Source of the DNA: an uncultured Desulfobacter sp. | GTDB taxonomy: Bacteria > Desulfobacterota > Desulfobacteria > Desulfobacterales > Desulfobacteraceae | Assembly (NCBI GenBank): GCA_963665095.1 | Contig: OY762069.1 | Span: 4,384,001-4,448,000 of the forward strand | DNA: 64,000 nucleotides | Direction: 5' to 3' | Shown: in pieces, positions 3,418 to 13,531 of the stretch | How positions within the stretch are numbered: position 1 is the stretch's first letter | Layout: every line of letters begins with the position of its first letter | Notes under the pieces: generated by a model | What the model was told of the DNA's origin: nothing | Seen by the model: the letters and a program-made list of their open reading frames with translations, nothing else | Database searches by the model: none | Made by a program: the position numbers and the translations under genes

Positions 3418-5574
3418 CTATAGGTTCTTTGATGGAGACCCGTTTTGCAACCTGTTGGCAAAATCGGAAAACTCCAGAGAGGTCATGGGTCTGGCATACA
3501 AAAATCCCTGGCACAGGGTGCTGCGCTCTGATTCGAGGAACTGGTGCTGATCTTCATTTTCAACCCCTTCGGCAATAACGTCGAGCCCAAGGGTTTCGCC
3601 CAGCTTTAAAATGGCACGGGCAATGGCGGCATCATTACAGTCTGTGGCAAGATCCCGGATAAAGGAGCGGTCCAGTTTCAGTTTGGTGACCGGCAGGTAT
3701 TTCAGATAGGCCAGGGATGAATACCCGGTGCCAAAATCGTCGATGGCAATGCCAAACCCCATATCCCGAAGCTCTTTAAGCTGGTTTACCGCCCTCCGGC
3801 TCTCCTCGATGACAAAACTTTCTGTCAGTTCCAGAGTGATCCGCTCTGCCGGACATCCTGTGACTTCAAGGATATGCTTTGCCGCCTCGACAAATTCACC
3901 CTGCACGATCTGCTTGCCCGACACATTAACGGAGATAAAGGTCAGTTTGCTGCCGGAATCAAGCCACGCTTTCATCTGTTTGCAGGCCGTATACAGCACC
4001 CATTCCCCCAGGGTGTGAATCAAATCGTTTTCCTCGGCAATGGGTATAAATTTTTCAGGTGGTACAAACCCTTTTTCCTTATGCTGCCAGCGGACCAGGG
4101 CCTCTGCACCGATGCACTGACGGGTTCCGGTATGAACCACCGGCTGGTAATACAGTTCCAGCCCTTCCTGCTCTATGGACTGCCGGAGGTCTGACTGGAG
4201 CGCCATGCGCTCCTGAACCGATCTGGACATCTCCTCCTTGTAAAACCGAAACTGGTTGCGGCCGAACTCCTTGGATCGGTACATGGCCACGTCTGCATTT
4301 TTAACCAGGGTATCAACATCTGTTCCATCCCCCGGGTACAGAGCAATGCCTACACTGGCAGATAAATACATACCTTTTTCACCCACCTTGACCGGCTCAG
4401 CCAGCACCCCTACGATTTTCTGTGCGGCGGTTTTCACAGAATGAACTGTGTTCATATTTTCCAGCAGAAGCATGAATTCGTCACCACCCAGCCGGGAGAG
4501 GGTATCACTCTTCCTGACACACCTTTTCAGTTTTTTCGCCACCTCGCACAGGAGTTCATCTCCCACCGGGTGGCCATAGGAGTCATTGACCTGTTTAAAA
4601 TTGTCCAGATCAACGAACAGTACCGCTATAATCGTGTTCTGACGTTCGGCAATTTTTATCGCGTGGGAGAGCCGTTCCCTGAACATGGATCTGTTGGGCA
4701 GCCCGGTGAGCATATCATAATGGGCCAGATAATTGATCCGGTCCTGGGATTTCTTCTGGTCAGTGAGGTCATACAGAATGGCAATATACCGTTCTATTTC
4801 CCCCTTATCATTGTAAAGACAGCTGATGCTGAGCCATACCGGAATAATTCCTCCGTCTTTATGGCGCTCCCAGATTTCACCCTGCCACCGGCCGGTGGTA
4901 TCTATGGCCTGCCAGAGCTGCTCATAAAATGCCGTATCATGATGACCGGCTCTGAACATGTGCCCGCCTTTTCCGACAACATCCTCACTGGTGTATCCCA
5001 GGATCTTTTCAAAGGCCTGGTTCGCTTTCAGGATGGTCTTATCCGGTGACATAATAAGAATCCCGTCCTGGGAATTCGCAAACATGCTGCTGGCCAGCCG
5101 AAAATCTTCTTCATCCGTCTTCCACCCGGAGAGATCCCGAATATGAAATAGATAATAGTGCGGGGTGTTGTCGGCCAGATCCCTGACCAATGTTATGATA
5201 TTCTCCACCCAGACGGCGTTATTGTTATTTTTGACGTAACGAATTTCCACAGTGACGGTGTCAGGCTCCCCTTTTTTCAATTGGTCCAGACTATTATTCA
5301 AGATATCCAGATCATCGGGAAAAATGATCGATCCCAGCGGGCTGGACAGAAGCGCGTCTCTTGAATGCCCTGTAATTCCCAAAAAGGTGCGATTCACTTC
5401 CAGCCACCTGCCGTCTGTTGACACCAGAGCGTTCCCAATGGCCCCATTGGACATGGTTCTCTGACGTCCGCCGTTGCTCTCTTTTTGCCCGGTTAAAGCG
5501 TCAGGTCCGTCTGCGCGGCCGGCATCACTTTTGTCGTTTTGTTCCATCTTTTCAGAAGACATAGGTATGGCCAT
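3418..5574 (-). CDS. PAS-PAS-GGDEF-EAL diguanylate cyclase/phosphodiesterase
   Basis: HYDMLTGLPNR, RKSD I-site five residues before GGDEF, EAL, DDFGTGYSS and AEGVE motifs all intact. Confidence 0.95.
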   Translation of the reverse strand: MAIPMSSEKMEQNDKSDAGRADGPDALTGQKESNGGRQRTMSNGAIGNALVSTDGRWLEVNRTFLGITGHSRDALLSSPLGSIIFPDDLDILNNSLDQLKKGEPDTVTVEIRYVKNNNNAVWVENIITLVRDLADNTPHYYLFHIRDLSGWKTDEEDFRLASSMFANSQDGILIMSPDKTILKANQAFEKILGYTSEDVVGKGGHMFRAGHHDTAFYEQLWQAIDTTGRWQGEIWERHKDGGIIPVWLSISCLYNDKGEIERYIAILYDLTDQKKSQDRINYLAHYDMLTGLPNRSMFRERLSHAIKIAERQNTIIAVLFVDLDNFKQVNDSYGHPVGDELLCEVAKKLKRCVRKSDTLSRLGGDEFMLLLENMNTVHSVKTAAQKIVGVLAEPVKVGEKGMYLSASVGIALYPGDGTDVDTLVKNADVAMYRSKEFGRNQFRFYKEEMSRSVQERMALQSDLRQSIEQEGLELYYQPVVHTGTRQCIGAEALVRWQHKEKGFVPPEKFIPIAEENDLIHTLGEWVLYTACKQMKAWLDSGSKLTFISVNVSGKQIVQGEFVEAAKHILEVTGCPAERITLELTESFVIEESRRAVNQLKELRDMGFGIAIDDFGTGYSSLAYLKYLPVTKLKLDRSFIRDLATDCNDAAIARAILKLGETLGLDVIAEGVENEDQHQFLESERSTLCQGFLYARPMTSLEFSDFANRLQNGSPSKNL

Positions 5575-6079: not shown

Positions 6080-6121
6080 TAATTAAACCGCTTCAAATCA
6101 TTAAGAGAGGATCTGTTTTAA

Positions 6122-9100
6122 GTGAAATCCAAAGCCCTTGAAGTCAACCTTTCCGATACTCGGGCAGACGTTGCCATTGATGAACGGTACCAGCTGCTTG
6201 TCTCCTTTTTTAAAGGGTATGTAGGTATTGTCAACCGGCTGGAAACCTTTCTAAAGGAGCTGTCCCACCCCTACCGGAACTGGGGATTTATTGTCAGTGA
6301 AGCCCGGCACTTCTCCCTGCACTATTTTCACCTGTACAGCACCGAAACAGACGGGCGCCGTGCCCTGGAACTGTTCTGCGATATTTTTACCGCAGCGTTT
6401 GAATCTGTGAATGACCCTGAAATTAAGACCAATGCGGCAGATAACCTCATGCTGGTTTTGCATACCATTGCAAAGGCCGGAGAAGACGGTTTAACTGTGT
6501 TTAAACCGACAATGATCAAGGAGGTAGAAAGGATCTGCCGGTTTGAGGATCCTGATTTTTTCTATTTTGTCTGCGCCTATTACCAGCCCGACAGCCTGGT
6601 AAAACAGATGGCGGCAAAAGAAGTTTCTCTGACAGATAAAGAACTGCTGCCCTGCCTGAACACCTTTTTAATTCGCTATTTTGACACCTCTTTCTCCTTC
6701 TGGCTTGCCCAGGACGATCCGTTAGCGTGGATGAAAGATAATATCAATGACTGGCGCTTAAGTTCAGACATGCTGGCACTTTTAGACCAGGTTTCCCACA
6801 CCCGGATCAGTAACCAGCAGCAACAGCTGGAACAGATCAGGGCCCTGCCGGATGACGCAAAAAAAACCACTGCCCTGACAGCGCTTACCGGTCACAGGGA
6901 GTTTATTAAAAAATTCAGAGATATGCCCCGGCAGATTCTCAATCTGGCCCGGAAACAGACCTCAGGGAAGTTTTTTAAACTGACTTTTCTGTTTTACATT
7001 ATCCATGCTCCGGGACTCTCCATTATCCACAGGGAAGCGCTGGGGGATATCCACCGGACACTGATCACGCTGATCGGTGAACAGGATTATAAAAAAGATA
7101 TGGCCATTGTGGACCAGACCTTTGCCCTTCTCAAGGAGCATAAGGGACGGTATCCGGCCACCGTACTGGAAGTGATCCATAAAATCGGGGATGCTGTTTA
7201 CAATACCGATGAAATTGAATCCATCAACCACTTCATTGACCGGTCCGTGGACCATGGTTTCCAGTTTCCCGATATCCGGGGGACAGGAGAGGACTGGCAG
7301 ATCAAGTGCAATGTGGCCCATGTCAAAAATATCCGGGTCTTTCTCACCCTGGTGGGCAGGCACCCCAAAAAGTCCAAGCGCCTGCTCTCCGCTCTGATAA
7401 CCTCCCTTGCCGTGGGGGGCGTGTTCATCCGGGATACGGACCTGTTTCCACGGGATATTACCCGGTTCTTAAATGCAGATATTGCCCCGGTATATAACCT
7501 GGTTAAACAGCTGGCACGCCTTCTGCCGGCATTCTTTAATGAAATCGGCGCAGAAGGTGAGCTCAGGGATATTTCCACCCGGCTGGATGAGTCTGTATTC
7601 CGCCGGGACAAGCTGATCCATTTTCTTCGCAAGCAGTGCCATGTGGAAAGTTCCTCCAGGATTGTCGAATTTATCCGGGAGGTAATGATGTTCTGGAAAA
7701 CCCTGGATAAATCACCCCTTAAGCCGTACCTGCCGCCGTCAATTTATAATGCCACAGAAACCCGCGGCCGTTACATTGACGGCCCTCATGCTGTTTTCCA
7801 GGCCCTGGCCTACCGCAAGCTCGAAACCCCGGCAGATTTCCTGGCTGCATCCAGAGCAGACATCGACCAGATCATTGACAAGGTGGACAGTGCAGACGAC
7901 CTTGACAAGGAAAGGGCAAAACTGATCATCCGCTTCCACGCGCTTCTCAACGAGAAATACGGCATCGACAACCTGGATCTTGGCACCTATATCAAAGCCC
8001 ATATGGGCCAGGGCCTGCCCGACCCCAAAGATGTTATCCATGCCCTGGCAGAACCGGAGCTGGAAACCCGCATCGGAGGCCTTCTGGCCTATATGAACGA
8101 ACTCAAACAGATTATTTTATCCAAAGAGCAGTTTATGGTAAATGAATCCATCTACCACAAACGCCATATTGCCGTGGATATTCCATCCATGTACGGGTCT
8201 TACAGTGAGGCCAAATTTGATGCGCTAGGCATGACCTTAAGAATTGAAAGCGTGGTTAACGTCATGTTTGAAGACCTGATCAACAGCATTGACCTGCGGC
8301 TGATCACCAAGCCCACCTTTGTAAGGATCTTCTCCATATTAAAGCTGTTCCGCCAGGCCCTTGCCCTGGACGGCATTGTGTCCAACAAGCTGGATATCCA
8401 GATGGACTTTTTAAAATACGCCATCAACATCACCACCTGCTCCTTTACCCAGTATCTGGACATATTCAAGGGCTTTACAAGGGCTGTGGCAGACGCGGTG
8501 AACGATCACTTCAACAACCTGCACTCTTTAAACCTTGTCAACCTGGACAGCCGCATCGGCAGGGAAAATATCCTCGAAAAATTCCTGCCTGACGGATACA
8601 ATCCGGCAAAAACAGCCGCAGCCAATACCCCCGCATCCCGGAAAATGGCAAAAAAAATGGACCAGCGGGTGGCGGATATTTTTTTCAGGGACCGCATTGT
8701 CACATCCCTGGGACTTCAGCAGCTGGATGTATTCTTACATAAAATTTTGAATACACTGTTCCGCCAGTCCGAACGCCTCAGCCAGGATGAATTGTCCGCA
8801 CTTCTTAACTACGACCCCAAGGCAGCCGTCTCCACCATTGACGCCAGAGAGCTGTTCAGCCACAACATCATTTACCTGGGCAACAAGGGCTTGAACCTGA
8901 TCAAGCTCAAACAGATGGGAATCAAGGTGCCCAACGGGTTTATCATCACCACCGAGGTATTTAAATGTCTGGACCTCATTGACTCGTATATTCCGGCATC
9001 CGTGAACTTCCGCCAGCTTGTCTCCCATATGATTGAACAGCTTGAAGCAGTGGAAGGCGCCAAATTCGGCGATCCTGAGAATCCGCTGCTGCTGTCGGTA

Positions 9101-10351
9101 CGATCAGGCTCGTCCATCTCCCAGCCTGGTATGCTGGACTCTTTTTTAAATGTGGGCATCAACGAACAGATTGCCGCACGCATGGCCGAGACCAGCGGCA
9201 ACCCCTGGTTTGCCTGGGATTCCTACCGCAGGTTCATTCAGGCCTACGGCATGGTATTCGGTATCCAGAGAGACCGGTTTGACGCAATTATCAAGTCGTT
9301 CAAGGACAGGGCTGACATCCGGTTCAAGCGGTATTTTACAGGCGATCAGATGCGGGATGTGGCCATGGCCTACAAACAGCTGCTGGTGGATGAAGGCATT
9401 GAACTGATTGAAAATCCCATGGATCAGCTATTTTTATCCATTAAAAAAGTGTTTGCATCCTGGAACTCAAAACGGGCCATAAACTACAGAAAGATCATGG
9501 GAATCTCCCATGACTGGGGCACGGCAGTCACGGTGCAGGCCATGGTATTCGGAAACCGCTGCCGGGAATCCGGATCCGGAGTTATCTTCACCCACAGCCC
9601 CAAACTGCCCGGAGACACCATCCGGCTCTGGGGAGATTTTACCATTGGCAATCAGGGGGAAGATGTGGTATCGGGTTTGGTAAAAACCCTGCCCATTTCA
9701 GAACTTCAACGGGAACTGGAAGGCAGGGATGTAAAAATCAGCCTGGAAGAACGGTTTCCACAAGTGTATGAACAGTTGAAAACCATTGTCCAGCAGCTGA
9801 TCTACGATGGAGGCTGGAATCCCCAGGAGATGGAATTTACCTTCCAGGGACAGGCCCCCGAAGATGTATTTATTCTTCAGGCAAGAGATCTGTCTTTACG
9901 AGACAGAAAAAAAATCAAGCGGTTTGACGCTGCCCCCGACAGACTTGAAAAGGCCTGCCTGGGCCAGGGCATAGGGGTTTCCGGCGGCGCCATGAGCGGC
10001 AGAATCGTGTTCACCCTGGAAGAGATCGACGGATTCAGGCGACAGGATCCTGACGCCAAGCTTATCCTGCTTCGAAATGATACAGTGCCTGACGACATTC
10101 TCGAGATTGATGCGGCTGACGGTATTTTAACGGCCCGGGGAGGGCTTACTTCCCATGCGGCTGTGGTGGCATACAATCTTGATAAAACCTGTGTGGTCGG
10201 GTGCAAAAATCTGATCTGCAACGAAGAGGCAGGGATTTGCGAACTAAACGATGTAACAATGAACACAGGGGATTTCATCAGCATTGACGGACACAAAGGT
10301 CTTGTCTATCAGGGGCAGATGAAAATCAGTGACCATTTAACCTCAATTTGA
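6122..10351 (+). CDS. PPDK-like dikinase: ~900-aa uncharacterised N-terminal region, ATP-grasp domain and phospho-His swivel domain; no C-terminal pyruvate-binding barrel
   Basis: LGNKGLNL, VPNGFIITTE, LLSVRSG, QAMVFGN, QGEDVVSG, QEMEFT, LQAR and GGLTSHAAVVA. The protein ends just after ISIDGHKGLVY. Confidence 0.85.
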   Translation: MKSKALEVNLSDTRADVAIDERYQLLVSFFKGYVGIVNRLETFLKELSHPYRNWGFIVSEARHFSLHYFHLYSTETDGRRALELFCDIFTAAFESVNDPEIKTNAADNLMLVLHTIAKAGEDGLTVFKPTMIKEVERICRFEDPDFFYFVCAYYQPDSLVKQMAAKEVSLTDKELLPCLNTFLIRYFDTSFSFWLAQDDPLAWMKDNINDWRLSSDMLALLDQVSHTRISNQQQQLEQIRALPDDAKKTTALTALTGHREFIKKFRDMPRQILNLARKQTSGKFFKLTFLFYIIHAPGLSIIHREALGDIHRTLITLIGEQDYKKDMAIVDQTFALLKEHKGRYPATVLEVIHKIGDAVYNTDEIESINHFIDRSVDHGFQFPDIRGTGEDWQIKCNVAHVKNIRVFLTLVGRHPKKSKRLLSALITSLAVGGVFIRDTDLFPRDITRFLNADIAPVYNLVKQLARLLPAFFNEIGAEGELRDISTRLDESVFRRDKLIHFLRKQCHVESSSRIVEFIREVMMFWKTLDKSPLKPYLPPSIYNATETRGRYIDGPHAVFQALAYRKLETPADFLAASRADIDQIIDKVDSADDLDKERAKLIIRFHALLNEKYGIDNLDLGTYIKAHMGQGLPDPKDVIHALAEPELETRIGGLLAYMNELKQIILSKEQFMVNESIYHKRHIAVDIPSMYGSYSEAKFDALGMTLRIESVVNVMFEDLINSIDLRLITKPTFVRIFSILKLFRQALALDGIVSNKLDIQMDFLKYAINITTCSFTQYLDIFKGFTRAVADAVNDHFNNLHSLNLVNLDSRIGRENILEKFLPDGYNPAKTAAANTPASRKMAKKMDQRVADIFFRDRIVTSLGLQQLDVFLHKILNTLFRQSERLSQDELSALLNYDPKAAVSTIDARELFSHNIIYLGNKGLNLIKLKQMGIKVPNGFIITTEVFKCLDLIDSYIPASVNFRQLVSHMIEQLEAVEGAKFGDPENPLLLSVRSGSSISQPGMLDSFLNVGINEQIAARMAETSGNPWFAWDSYRRFIQAYGMVFGIQRDRFDAIIKSFKDRADIRFKRYFTGDQMRDVAMAYKQLLVDEGIELIENPMDQLFLSIKKVFASWNSKRAINYRKIMGISHDWGTAVTVQAMVFGNRCRESGSGVIFTHSPKLPGDTIRLWGDFTIGNQGEDVVSGLVKTLPISELQRELEGRDVKISLEERFPQVYEQLKTIVQQLIYDGGWNPQEMEFTFQGQAPEDVFILQARDLSLRDRKKIKRFDAAPDRLEKACLGQGIGVSGGAMSGRIVFTLEEIDGFRRQDPDAKLILLRNDTVPDDILEIDAADGILTARGGLTSHAAVVAYNLDKTCVVGCKNLICNEEAGICELNDVTMNTGDFISIDGHKGLVYQGQMKISDHLTSI

Positions 10352-10365
10352 AAGAAGGCAAAGAT

Positions 10366-11616
10366 ATGAGTAGTGACGCATCAAAGATCCTGGGCATTAA
10401 CGGACTTGGAAGAATTGGCAAACTGACCTTATGGCATCATGCCGGCAGAAAATTCTTTGATGAAATCGTCATCAACGTGGGCAGGGAAGTGGGAACCGGT
10501 ATGGACGATCTAATCCACTATATCGAACGGGACTCCTCCTATGGCCGCCTTGACGCATTTCTGCACGGATTTCAGGCCGAACCGGTGATCACAGATATTG
10601 ATCCTGACAGTGGCACGCTGAAAGTAAACGGGGTCAATATTAAAATTCTTCGGCAGCACCGTAACCCAAAGGATATTGAATGGGCACAGAACGGTGTGGA
10701 GCTTGTGGTGGACACAACGGGTCAGTTTCTGGACCCCAACCTCGGGGCCGAAGACCCCAAAGGCGCCATCCGGGGCCATCTGGAAGCCGGTGCCAGAAAA
10801 GTGGTTGCATCCGCCCCCTTTAAGATGAAACAGGGGGCCATGATGCCGGACGATGCCGTCACCACGGTTATGGGCATCAATGACAAGGATTATGACCCGG
10901 TCCGGCACTGTCTGATTTCCAATGCATCCTGCACCACCACCTGTCTGTCGCATATGGTCAAGCCGCTGCTGGATGCCTTTGGCCCGGAACGGGTTTTATC
11001 AGCCTCCATGGCCACGGTGCATGCGGCCACAGGATCCCAGCAGGTGCTGGACCGGCTGCCCAAGACCGGAAAAACAGATTTAAGAAAAAACCGGTCTATC
11101 ATGAATAACATTATTCTGACCACCACAGGTGCAGCCAAGGCATTGCAGCTGGTGATTCCTGAAATGGCAAGCATCGGATTCATTGCAGAGTCCGTTCGTA
11201 TTCCCACCTCCACAGGATCTTTGATCATTCTGGTCATTAATCTGCAGGAGGAGCTGGACAAACCGCCGGTGCGAAGGGAGCTGATCAACCAGATCTACCA
11301 GGACACCGCCAAAAGACAGACCAACGGCTACCTGGTCTTCACCAACAAACAGAATGTGTCATCGGACATCATCGGCACCCCCAGGGCCGCAGCGGTCATT
11401 GAAGGCCATGAAACCCATACCCGGACCGCATCCATTTCCATTAATCTTGGGCAGGTGCAGGGAATTGATAAAACGGTTCTTGAAAGCATTAAGGATCATG
11501 TGGGTTCCATCCAGGTAACCCAGGCGGTTATTTACGGCTGGTATGACAATGAGATGGCATCCTATGTGAATATGCTTGGCGACAGGACAGTAACAATCGC
11601 AGAATCCATGGACTAA
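10366..11616 (+). CDS. gap: Glyceraldehyde-3-phosphate dehydrogenase, type I family, divergent
   Basis: GINGLGRIG Rossmann motif, catalytic ASCTTTCL, TTTGAAKA and WYDNE. ATG 10366 after GAAGG is preferred over TTG 10348. Confidence 0.88.
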   Translation: MSSDASKILGINGLGRIGKLTLWHHAGRKFFDEIVINVGREVGTGMDDLIHYIERDSSYGRLDAFLHGFQAEPVITDIDPDSGTLKVNGVNIKILRQHRNPKDIEWAQNGVELVVDTTGQFLDPNLGAEDPKGAIRGHLEAGARKVVASAPFKMKQGAMMPDDAVTTVMGINDKDYDPVRHCLISNASCTTTCLSHMVKPLLDAFGPERVLSASMATVHAATGSQQVLDRLPKTGKTDLRKNRSIMNNIILTTTGAAKALQLVIPEMASIGFIAESVRIPTSTGSLIILVINLQEELDKPPVRRELINQIYQDTAKRQTNGYLVFTNKQNVSSDIIGTPRAAAVIEGHETHTRTASISINLGQVQGIDKTVLESIKDHVGSIQVTQAVIYGWYDNEMASYVNMLGDRTVTIAESMD

Positions 11617-11742
11617 GTTTTTGGGCGAAAACTTACCCACCTGCGGCGTTGCTGCGGGAGTTTGTAATCCTCACAACCTGAAGGCTGCTCCGGTTACAAA
11701 CTCCCTTGCGCCTTGCATCTGGGCAAGTTTTCGCCCAAAAAC
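11617..11742 (-). repeat. Structured palindromic repeat copy 2, inverted relative to copy 1
   Basis: The reverse complement shares the blocks TTGCCCAGATGCAAGGCGCAAG, AACCGGAGC, CTTCAG, GTGAGGATT and GCAGCAACGCCGCAG with 5954-6079. 23-bp outer inverted repeat with one mismatch. Confidence 0.85.
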
Positions 11743-11941: not shown

Positions 11942-13531
11942 TTATGCCCGGACAGCCTCGAATTCATCCATGGGCTCCTCAACCGGCTCATCTGCATATT
12001 TTTCGCGAACTTCAAGAATTTGATTCCTTACCTTGAATGCGGCCTCCACCAGATGGGGATCAAAAATTTTACCACGGCTTGCTATTAGATAATCAAAAAC
12101 TTTATCCATGGGCCAGGCAGGTTTGTAAACCCTGTGACTGGCCAGGGCGTCAAGAATGTCTGCCAGACAGGTAAGTCTTCCGGCAAGGGGGATCTGAACG
12201 CCTTTCAGCCCCTGGGGGTATCCGGTGCCGTCCCAGCGTTCATGGTGGGTATGTGCAATGGTCGCAGCCATGGTTAGAAGTCTGCGCTTTGAGGTTGAAA
12301 GAATTTTATGCCCGATTGACGTATGTGATTTCATGATTCCGAATTCCTCAGGTGTCAACCGTCCGGGTTTAAGCAGGATGGCGTCGGGAATGGCAATTTT
12401 CCCCACATCATGCATGGGCGCTGCACACTTGATCTGTTCCACTTCTCTGGCGTCGTATCCTGCGGCCCGGCCGATCATACCGATATATTCAGCCACCCGG
12501 ATCACATGGTATGCGGTTTCCTTGGACCGGTTCTCCACCAGCTCTCCCAAAAGAAGAATAATTTCCTGCTGGGTCTCCTTAATCTCCTGATTCAGGTAAC
12601 GATTGTCAAAGGCAATGCCAACATTTCTGCTGAAAATTTCCAGCAACTGCTGGTATTCATGGGACATATCCTTATCGCACCCTTCAAGATAAAAAAGGTG
12701 ATGCCTGTTCTGCTGGGTTGGGAAGTATCCCACATAGCTGTCTTCAAAATGCAGGCTTCTTTTTTCTTCAACCACCTGTTCGAAACGTTCTTTGAGTTCA
12801 GGCGTCAACTGGATTTTCTTTTGGCCCTGGCCTTCCTGACCGAATTTACCGGTTCCGGCAATAAGTTCGTATTCTCCGGCAGAATCCTGGGCCAGGGTAC
12901 ACCCTTCATTGCGGACATACATGGAATTTTTGTGCTTAAAAAGAGCCGCGATCTGGGTGAGAACCCCCTGTGCCAGCTGCTTGATGGATGGTTCTTTAAA
13001 CAATCCACCTGAGGCTTCAACAATATGCCGGAGGCCTTCCCGGTTTTTTTCTATGGCCTGCATATCCCTGTATGAGCGAATGGCAGTATATACCGTCGTA
13101 AAAAGCTTTTGTGCCGTGAGATCTGTTTTCTGCTTATAATCGTTAATATCGTAATCCACAATCACATTTCGTTCAGGCGCCTGCCCGGGCTGGCCGGTGC
13201 GAAGGATGATTCTGAGCATGCTGTTATTCAGGTCTTCCCTGATCAGTTTCACCAGCTCAAGTCCGGCATGATCTGACTCCATAACCACATCTAAAAGCAT
13301 AACTGCGGCATCTTCATGAATTTTTATCAGATCAATGGCCTCCTGGGCCGTATATGCTGAAATAAACTCCAGTCCGGCACCTTCAAAATCAAAATCGTCC
13401 AGCACCAGCCGGGTTGCTGTGTGAATATCAGGCTCATCGTCAACGATGATAAGTTTCCACGATTTTTTATCTGACTGGGATTCCGGAGCATCACCGTCCT
13501 CAGGGTCAAAAACCAGTAAGCCTTCTTCCAT
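11942..13531 (-). CDS. Response regulator with HD-GYP c-di-GMP phosphodiesterase domain (REC, DUF3369-like linker, HD-GYP)
   Basis: IVDDE and LLDVVM receiver motifs; MHDVGKI and HHERWDGTGYP; GGAG RBS. Confidence 0.92.
   Translation of the reverse strand: MEEGLLVFDPEDGDAPESQSDKKSWKLIIVDDEPDIHTATRLVLDDFDFEGAGLEFISAYTAQEAIDLIKIHEDAAVMLLDVVMESDHAGLELVKLIREDLNNSMLRIILRTGQPGQAPERNVIVDYDINDYKQKTDLTAQKLFTTVYTAIRSYRDMQAIEKNREGLRHIVEASGGLFKEPSIKQLAQGVLTQIAALFKHKNSMYVRNEGCTLAQDSAGEYELIAGTGKFGQEGQGQKKIQLTPELKERFEQVVEEKRSLHFEDSYVGYFPTQQNRHHLFYLEGCDKDMSHEYQQLLEIFSRNVGIAFDNRYLNQEIKETQQEIILLLGELVENRSKETAYHVIRVAEYIGMIGRAAGYDAREVEQIKCAAPMHDVGKIAIPDAILLKPGRLTPEEFGIMKSHTSIGHKILSTSKRRLLTMAATIAHTHHERWDGTGYPQGLKGVQIPLAGRLTCLADILDALASHRVYKPAWPMDKVFDYLIASRGKIFDPHLVEAAFKVRNQILEVREKYADEPVEEPMDEFEAVRA

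Follow-up and report, generated by a model that had tools for sequence, protein, structure and literature searches.

The window analysed here is a 64,000-nucleotide stretch of DNA from an uncultured Desulfobacter sp. (GCA_963665095.1, contig OY762069.1, positions 4,384,001 to 4,448,000), and its gene at 6122..10351 (+) encodes a dikinase with the ATP-grasp and swivelling phospho-histidine domains of pyruvate phosphate dikinase (PPDK) and without the C-terminal phosphoenolpyruvate (PEP)/pyruvate barrel. Judged by its sequence, the protein works like a swivelling-histidine dikinase, belongs to none of the named families of that kind, and stands for a real, conserved and uncharacterised family. 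In the sugar metabolism of anaerobic bacteria, it likely performs an additional, hitherto undescribed transfer of phosphate, probably an AMP-forming activation of 3-phosphoglycerate (3-PG). A preliminary description of the stretch had recognised a barrel-less dikinase other than PPDK, which stands, and had overlooked the gene for a long glyceraldehyde-3-phosphate dehydrogenase (GAPDH) right behind it; this dedicated partner narrows the candidates to the step of GAPDH and phosphoglycerate kinase (PGK). To our knowledge, a single ATP-linked route between 3-PG and 1,3-bisphosphoglycerate (1,3-BPG) is assumed in lower glycolysis. The pair occurs in about a quarter of the sampled genomes of the phylum, as well as in Bacteroidales, Marinimicrobia, Myxococcota and Magnetococcales, and its conservation would mean either a new enzyme linked to AMP and pyrophosphate (PPi) at the 3-PG/1,3-BPG step or a phospho-histidine switch on GAPDH that is likewise new. 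In both cases a change would follow for the metabolic models of sulfate reducers and of other anaerobes with a low energy yield, in which the gene is at present counted as ppdK.

The dikinase gene is an intact open reading frame (ORF) of 1,409 aa for which full-length homologs were found. It starts with GTG at 6122 behind a purine-rich site (6105-6111), the start residue is the same in homologs, and a promoter scan at the locus gave matches at chance level. Pfam models placed PPDK_N at residues 961-1265 (E 1.9e-30) and PEP-utilizers at 1313-1393 (E 1.2e-18), with no match to PEP-utilizers_C (PF02896), which is the outcome foreseen in the preliminary description; residues 1-960 had no Pfam match at all. 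Residues 918-1403 are colinear with residues 18-513 of solved PPDKs of the C. symbiosum type (E 2.4e-91), and the chain stops 6 residues past 1403, where the PPDK barrel would start. The PPDK-type ATP-grasp domain (residues 918-1265; 8873..9916, +) carries K922, R994, E1236, E1238, Q1253 and R1255, and the swivelling phospho-histidine domain at the protein end (9956..10330, +) carries the T1343-S-H1345 phosphohistidine motif, with the His1345 codon at 10154-10156. In the alignment, K922, R994, E1238, Q1253, R1255 and H1345 correspond to K22, R92, E323, Q335, R337 and H455 of C. symbiosum PPDK; their catalytic roles are presumably the same, with R337 (R1255 here) taken to be the binder of inorganic phosphate (Pi). 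The ATP-grasp residues and the T-S-H motif are intact, as stated earlier, and 160 to 161 of 162 full-length homologs keep six of these residues (K922 in 161, R994 in 160, E1238, Q1253 and R1255 in 161 each, and the histidine in 160). All NCBIfam models scored below their cut-offs, namely TIGR01828 PPDK (398 bits against 843), NF004531 truncated PPDK (299 against 456), TIGR01418 PEP synthase (100 against 740) and NF041857 rifampicin phosphotransferase (46 against 999), and by these scores the ATP half is assigned to the PPDK type rather than the PEP-synthase type (398 versus 100 bits).

Identity with PPDK was rejected, because no barrel is available in cis or in trans, a full PPDK is encoded elsewhere and the TIGR01828 score is below cut-off. 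The source genome has a full PPDK of 907 aa, and its other three PF02896 barrels lie inside enzymes of 860, 761 and 601 aa; as all four barrel domains sit in larger enzymes (601-907 aa), no stand-alone barrel gene was found in this genome and there is no lone barrel to borrow. A truncation or frameshift of ppdK was also rejected, since hundreds of clusters share the architecture: with 7,997 candidates scored, residues 1-900 matched 1,516 proteins, and a second search matched 780 cluster representatives. The preliminary description had predicted that such proteins would be mislabelled as ppdK, and source annotations do call homologs pyruvate phosphate dikinase. One paper gives two genes of a Desulfotignum, of which one might belong to this family, as pyruvate phosphate dikinase without comment (PMC4046663). 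Literature searches, with subscription papers mostly outside their reach and supplements excluded, found no paper on the dikinase family or on the dikinase-GAPDH pair, in agreement with the earlier view that the family is uncharacterised.

The dikinase and the long GAPDH are inherited together. The long GAPDH gene lies directly after the dikinase gene in 68 of 73 loci, and the remaining five end within 8 bases. Among 61 relatives, which are not independent as 25 are from one genus, both genes were found in 52 and neither in the same nine. Across 201 genomes of the phylum, the dikinase front end was matched in 57, the long GAPDH in 54 and both in 53; in two of the latter, a stop interrupts the dikinase match. 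The four genomes with a dikinase alone hold divergent copies (G133, G195) or remnants (G135, G187), and the one with a long GAPDH alone (G161) has an internal stop. Among distant metagenome loci, the pair was adjacent in 10 of 13, with one further locus at a contig edge and two with another gene behind. The genes pgk and tpi were present in 6 of 17 wide loci, directly behind the pair in five of these six, and an ordinary gap gene lies just upstream of the dikinase in 15 of 29 phylum loci versus 0 of 61 closer loci; operons of gap, pgk and tpi are thus a frequent setting of the pair. The source genome also has PGK and three other GAPDH-family genes.

The long GAPDH gene (10366..11616, +) encodes 416 aa from an ATG that lies 14 bases past the dikinase stop, or 422 aa from a TTG at 10348. 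The protein is about 80 residues longer than ordinary GAPDHs, to which it is approximately 30-40% identical, has four insertions, and scores below the TIGR01534 cut-off (321 against 367 bits). It shows the characters of a class I enzyme, with catalytic C189 and H219, the phosphate-site Ser/Thr/Arg residues and a Rossmann G-x-G-R-I-G motif, and S188, C189, T190, H219, T222 and R278 are kept in 62 of 62 long GAPDHs. The NAD-type Asp of ordinary GAPDH is replaced by G39-R40, which we take to be an NADP-type fingerprint; GapB-type class I GAPDHs are NADP-preferring and gluconeogenic. An additional histidine, H351, is invariant in all 62 long GAPDHs and absent from the ordinary GAPDHs aligned. The complete genome G086 has no PF02800 match other than the long GAPDH. 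Because the substrate residues checked are conserved throughout and G086 has this sole match, the long GAPDH very likely performs the normal GAPDH reaction on glyceraldehyde 3-phosphate (GAP) and 1,3-BPG.

The front end of the dikinase was modelled using AlphaFold2. The model of residues 1-910 (73 sequences; mean pLDDT 88.9, pTM 0.81) consists of helices and one hairpin (674-695), laid out as a repeat-like part, a core and a four-helix bundle, and neither it nor the model of residues 395-890 (pLDDT 91, pTM 0.87) contains a barrel. A permuted PEP-binding barrel in the front end, which the preliminary description had named as a finding that would refute it, was rejected on these two helical models, and the alignment and the models agree with its account of a protein that ends after the histidine domain and has about 900 mostly helical residues in front. 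Residues 1-394 (6122..7303, +) are predicted to form helical repeats of a HEAT-like kind; an S-x-A-L-x-x-N motif at the N-terminus is conserved there, together with E46, H49 and N53, and from the model this region is possibly a scaffold or a partner-binding part. Residues 395-890 (7304..8791, +) form a helical core with a terminal four-helix bundle, which is the candidate acceptor domain. Two motifs were delimited within it, namely Motif 1 (residues 473-512; 7538..7657, +), in which R482 (380/380), D489 (379/380), R503 (382/382), K504 (380/382) and H507 (382/382) are conserved, and Motif 2 (residues 674-700; 8141..8221, +), a beta-hairpin with K680 (360/365), R681 (361/365), H682 (360/361), S689 and E696. 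In a redundant set of about 380 core sequences, extending down to approximately 30% identity, R482, D489, R503, K504, H507, K612, K680, R681 and H682 are 98-100% invariant. The invariant polar residues at 470-700 have the appearance of an active site for an anionic ligand and would fit an acceptor site, in partial support of the preliminary proposal that the N-terminal region may bind a different small molecule or protein.

Searches for a known relative of this region returned little. Compared with solved structures, the 1-910 model gave generic helical-repeat (26-412) and four-helix-bundle matches alone (Foldseek TM at most 0.18; best Z 10.5 at an rmsd of 17.6), and for the 395-890 model Foldseek returned nothing at E 0.001, while Z values of at most 10.5 were confined to the last bundle. 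Nothing meaningful came from profile searches in which the front end was compared with PDB sequences and with Pfam, and a search of the ESM Atlas yielded only low-score matches to the dikinase's own family.

On motif-level likeness, weak in itself and confined to residues 480-527 and 699-724, the core appears somewhat more probably than otherwise to be a remote homolog of the central domain of the glucan water dikinases (GWD and PWD). The StGWD1 report describes that domain as all-helical, with a four-helix bundle at its end, and as receiving the histidine domain (PMC13553574). Bacterial GWD/PWD genes were identified by means of PF22973 in 5 of 201 genomes, beside glycogen genes (L234-L238 in G227, G100, G256, G135 and G209); bacterial GWD and PWD have more than 1,300 and more than 1,900 database matches, respectively, and one of the genes identified matches the solved StGWD1 central domain 9HA9 (E 2e-90). 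In a two-block scan with blocks picked by eye, the block 480-527 was placed where predicted in 118 of 120 proteins of the GWD type and in 75 of 120 of the PWD type; out of 1,972 background ORFs, 1 and 17, respectively, reached the median scores. The scan in the reciprocal direction was weak, with 80 background ORFs as high and the window protein missed. Using hhalign, the core aligned with bacterial GWD central-domain profiles no better than shuffles did, the truncated PWD profile gave P 0.12, and the full PWD profile gave a local P of 0.015 across 135 columns and, when aligned globally, no match (P 0.015-0.47 over all GWD/PWD runs). The structure 9HA9 was not among the fold matches listed, and its presence in the structure library searched is unconfirmed. 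No PF22973 histidine domain was found in the dikinase or the source genome and no PF23166 match in the dikinase, and the basic hairpin 674-700 is family-specific, with no counterpart in the PWD alignment. If the link to GWD is true, a plant acceptor domain gains a bacterial relative with another job.

As the reading that we favour, held at slightly less than even confidence, the dikinase would be a 3-phosphoglycerate dikinase that feeds the long GAPDH: 3-PG + ATP + Pi -> 1,3-BPG + AMP + PPi. By analogy with PPDK chemistry, ATP and Pi would phosphorylate His1345 with release of AMP and PPi; the histidine domain would then swing to the 395-890 core, where Arg, Lys and His residues may hold 3-PG, and pass the phosphate to the 3-PG carboxylate. 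The resulting 1,3-BPG would be handed to the bound long GAPDH and reduced with NADPH, and the instability of 1,3-BPG would explain why a dedicated GAPDH partner is kept. A PPi-conserving dikinase half would suit a high-energy product such as an acyl phosphate. The NADP-type fingerprint of the long GAPDH would favour the gluconeogenic direction. The PGK/GAPDH step is uphill in gluconeogenesis, and a second phosphoanhydride spent here would therefore mirror PPDK and PEP synthase one step lower, so that with removal of PPi the reaction would pull on this step as those enzymes do at the pyruvate step; in reverse, ATP would be recovered from AMP and PPi. The conserved catalytic residues, the invariant basic cluster, the strict pairing with the long GAPDH and the gap/pgk/tpi context in several lineages are counted in favour of this proposal. 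A fuller version is put forward more tentatively still, in which an AMP- and PPi-forming phosphoglycerate dikinase, docked on its own NADP-GAPDH and using a GWD-related acceptor domain, would channel 1,3-BPG and provide a second PGK/GAPDH route in anaerobes of several phyla.

Several observations weigh against a 3-phosphoglycerate dikinase. Of the 53 genomes that carry the pair, 52 retain PGK, as does G086, so PGK is never visibly replaced, and no gene-loss sign of replacement was seen among 61 relatives (PGK in 59) and 201 phylum genomes (PGK in 198). In five genomes of one family (G072, G145, G176, G206 and G236), the long GAPDH gene adjoins pgk, away from the dikinase. The known chemistry of GWD concerns hydroxyls and not carboxylates, which matters if the core is related to GWD (PMC13553574), and the barrel-less VadK is described as a regulator (PMC13400623).

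The most serious alternative, which we consider unlikely though by no means negligible, is that the protein is a VadK-like regulatory kinase that would autophosphorylate according to ATP, AMP and PPi and would switch the long GAPDH by binding or phosphotransfer, leaving the chemistry to PGK. H351 would then be the candidate phosphate acceptor, a role to which its invariance in long GAPDHs and its absence from ordinary ones would be suited, and in the core the basic residues would serve to bind either the target loop or a metabolite that is sensed. VadK is reported to phosphorylate itself and to co-purify with enzymes whose genes adjoin its own (PMC13400623). A regulator is also consistent with the retention of PGK in pair-bearing genomes, with the five genomes in which the long GAPDH is beside pgk and apart from the dikinase, with a helical-repeat front end suited to protein binding, and with the full-length ordinary gap without its catalytic cysteine beside the dikinase of G244. 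Divergent homologs beside sigma-54 GAF regulators (L113, L114), or without the histidine and joined to hemerythrin (P0160), point in the same direction. However, VadK has no acceptor domain, whereas the present protein has a 500-residue core with the invariance of an enzyme, and it falls short of the cut-off of the VadK-type model NF004531 (299 against 456).

The other alternatives have less in their favour. A dikinase acting on a hydroxyl of another metabolite near the triose-phosphate node (e.g. glyceraldehyde, glycerate or a four-carbon analogue), with the long GAPDH using the product, is improbable: it draws on the same co-inheritance as the 3-phosphoglycerate dikinase, and a GWD-like core is suggestive of hydroxyl chemistry, but an ordinary ester needs no PPi-conserving ATP site, the pair has no conserved transporter or catabolic gene next to it, and the long GAPDH is the sole GAPDH in G086. 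Considerably less probable is a dikinase for glycogen (alpha-glucan) that is built on a PPDK chassis and coupled to glycolysis. It would account for the motif-level resemblance between the core and the central domains of GWD/PWD, and glycogen synthase and phosphorylase matches were found in 4 of 5 genomes checked, the source genome included; on the other hand, the dikinase has no CBM-like or GWD histidine-domain match, its hairpin 674-700 is without counterpart in the PWD alignment, it occurs among gap, pgk and tpi whereas bacterial GWD/PWD genes lie among glycogen genes, and G244 (99% complete) has an intact pair and no PF00343 or PF08323 match. Remote homology to GWD does not make the protein a glucan dikinase, because domain order, ATP domain and neighbours differ and because G244 keeps the pair without a glycogen synthase or phosphorylase match. 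Hardly credible is a PPDK half that borrows its barrel from another gene, or a broken ppdK; the C-terminal third is clearly PPDK-derived, but the full PPDK, the lack of a lone barrel in the genome and the conservation of the architecture described above oppose it.

The 3-phosphoglycerate dikinase proposed here was compared with the known systems. PPDK (EC 2.7.9.1; TIGR01828; C. symbiosum structures 1KBL, 1DIK and 9PZL) has the same order of ATP-grasp and swivelling histidine domains and the same catalytic residues, whereas the dikinase lacks the C-terminal PEP/pyruvate barrel, has 917 helical residues in front and has the long GAPDH as its partner. VadK (Rv1127c of Mycobacterium tuberculosis; NF004531) likewise has ATP and histidine domains, no barrel and a gene beside those of linked enzymes; it is a protein of about 50 kDa without an acceptor domain that is linked to the methylcitrate cycle, in contrast to the 900-residue front end and GAPDH partner found here (PMC13400623). 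In GWD1 and PWD (EC 2.7.9.4 and 2.7.9.5; StGWD1 9HA9 and 9QVI), an all-helical domain ending in a four-helix bundle also precedes the dikinase modules (PMC13553574). The order is central-His-ATP in GWD and core-ATP-His in the dikinase, whose ATP domain is of the PPDK type. Rifampicin phosphotransferase (NF041857) and PEP synthase (TIGR01418) share the swivelling-histidine principle with a swapped acceptor domain, but matched only weakly and locally and differ in order and acceptor domain; rifampicin phosphotransferase has its rifampicin-binding domain between the ATP and histidine domains, which are adjacent in the dikinase. PGK with a class I GAPDH involves the same 1,3-BPG as the proposed reaction and a partner with class I catalytic residues; unlike the proposed dikinase, PGK forms ADP and no phospho-enzyme.

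The nearest named relatives of the dikinase are from Desulfobacter species (approximately 80% identity), and the source names of homologs include Desulfobacterales, Magnetococcales, Bacteroidales, Marinimicrobia and Myxococcota. Divergent homologs of 1,500 aa (L113:6810-11441, +; L114:7457-11941, -) match the front end at E 1e-11 to 1e-13, have altered motifs with G-A-H for T-S-H, and are followed by a gene for a GAF sigma-54 activator; no long GAPDH match was found in their genomes. The homolog P0160 has an N-terminal hemerythrin fusion, Tyr in place of the phospho-histidine and no ATP-site Arg, and is likely a pseudo-enzyme on these substitutions. The 1,588-aa record P0057, in which a dikinase is joined to the start of a long GAPDH with few residues lost at the joint, is possibly an assembly artefact, being a single record.

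Departures from the usual arrangement of the pair were also recorded. One stop codon lies within the dikinase match in G123 and G214, where the long GAPDH is intact, which reflects decay or sequence error. At L115:7741-9274 (G135), a dikinase with an internal deletion lies beside a 92-aa fragment of the long GAPDH, and these remnants are read as joint decay of both genes. The dikinases at L131:8496-12857 (-) and L132:6371-10657 (+) (G026 and G034) lie behind an ordinary gap with no adjoining long GAPDH, and G025 and G034 each have two dikinases and one long GAPDH. A full-length, degenerate ordinary gap lies directly upstream of the dikinase at L118:12839-13840 (-) and L117:12702-13700 (-) (G244 and G153); that of G244 has lost both the catalytic Cys and His, and in G086 the ordinary gap is lost. 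In some Desulfobacterales (L156, L159), the pair lies behind CO dehydrogenase/acetyl-CoA synthase genes and a DUF3786 gene (Pfam checked in L159), an arrangement not seen in the window.

In the window, a terminator-like hairpin follows the GAPDH gene (11640..11658, +) and is a chance-level match (1 found, 0.7 expected). The pair is flanked by genes for a PAS-GGDEF-EAL protein (3418-5574, -) and a receiver-DUF3369-HD protein (11942-13531, -), which are ordinary signalling genes and are unlinked to the pair in the distant loci examined.

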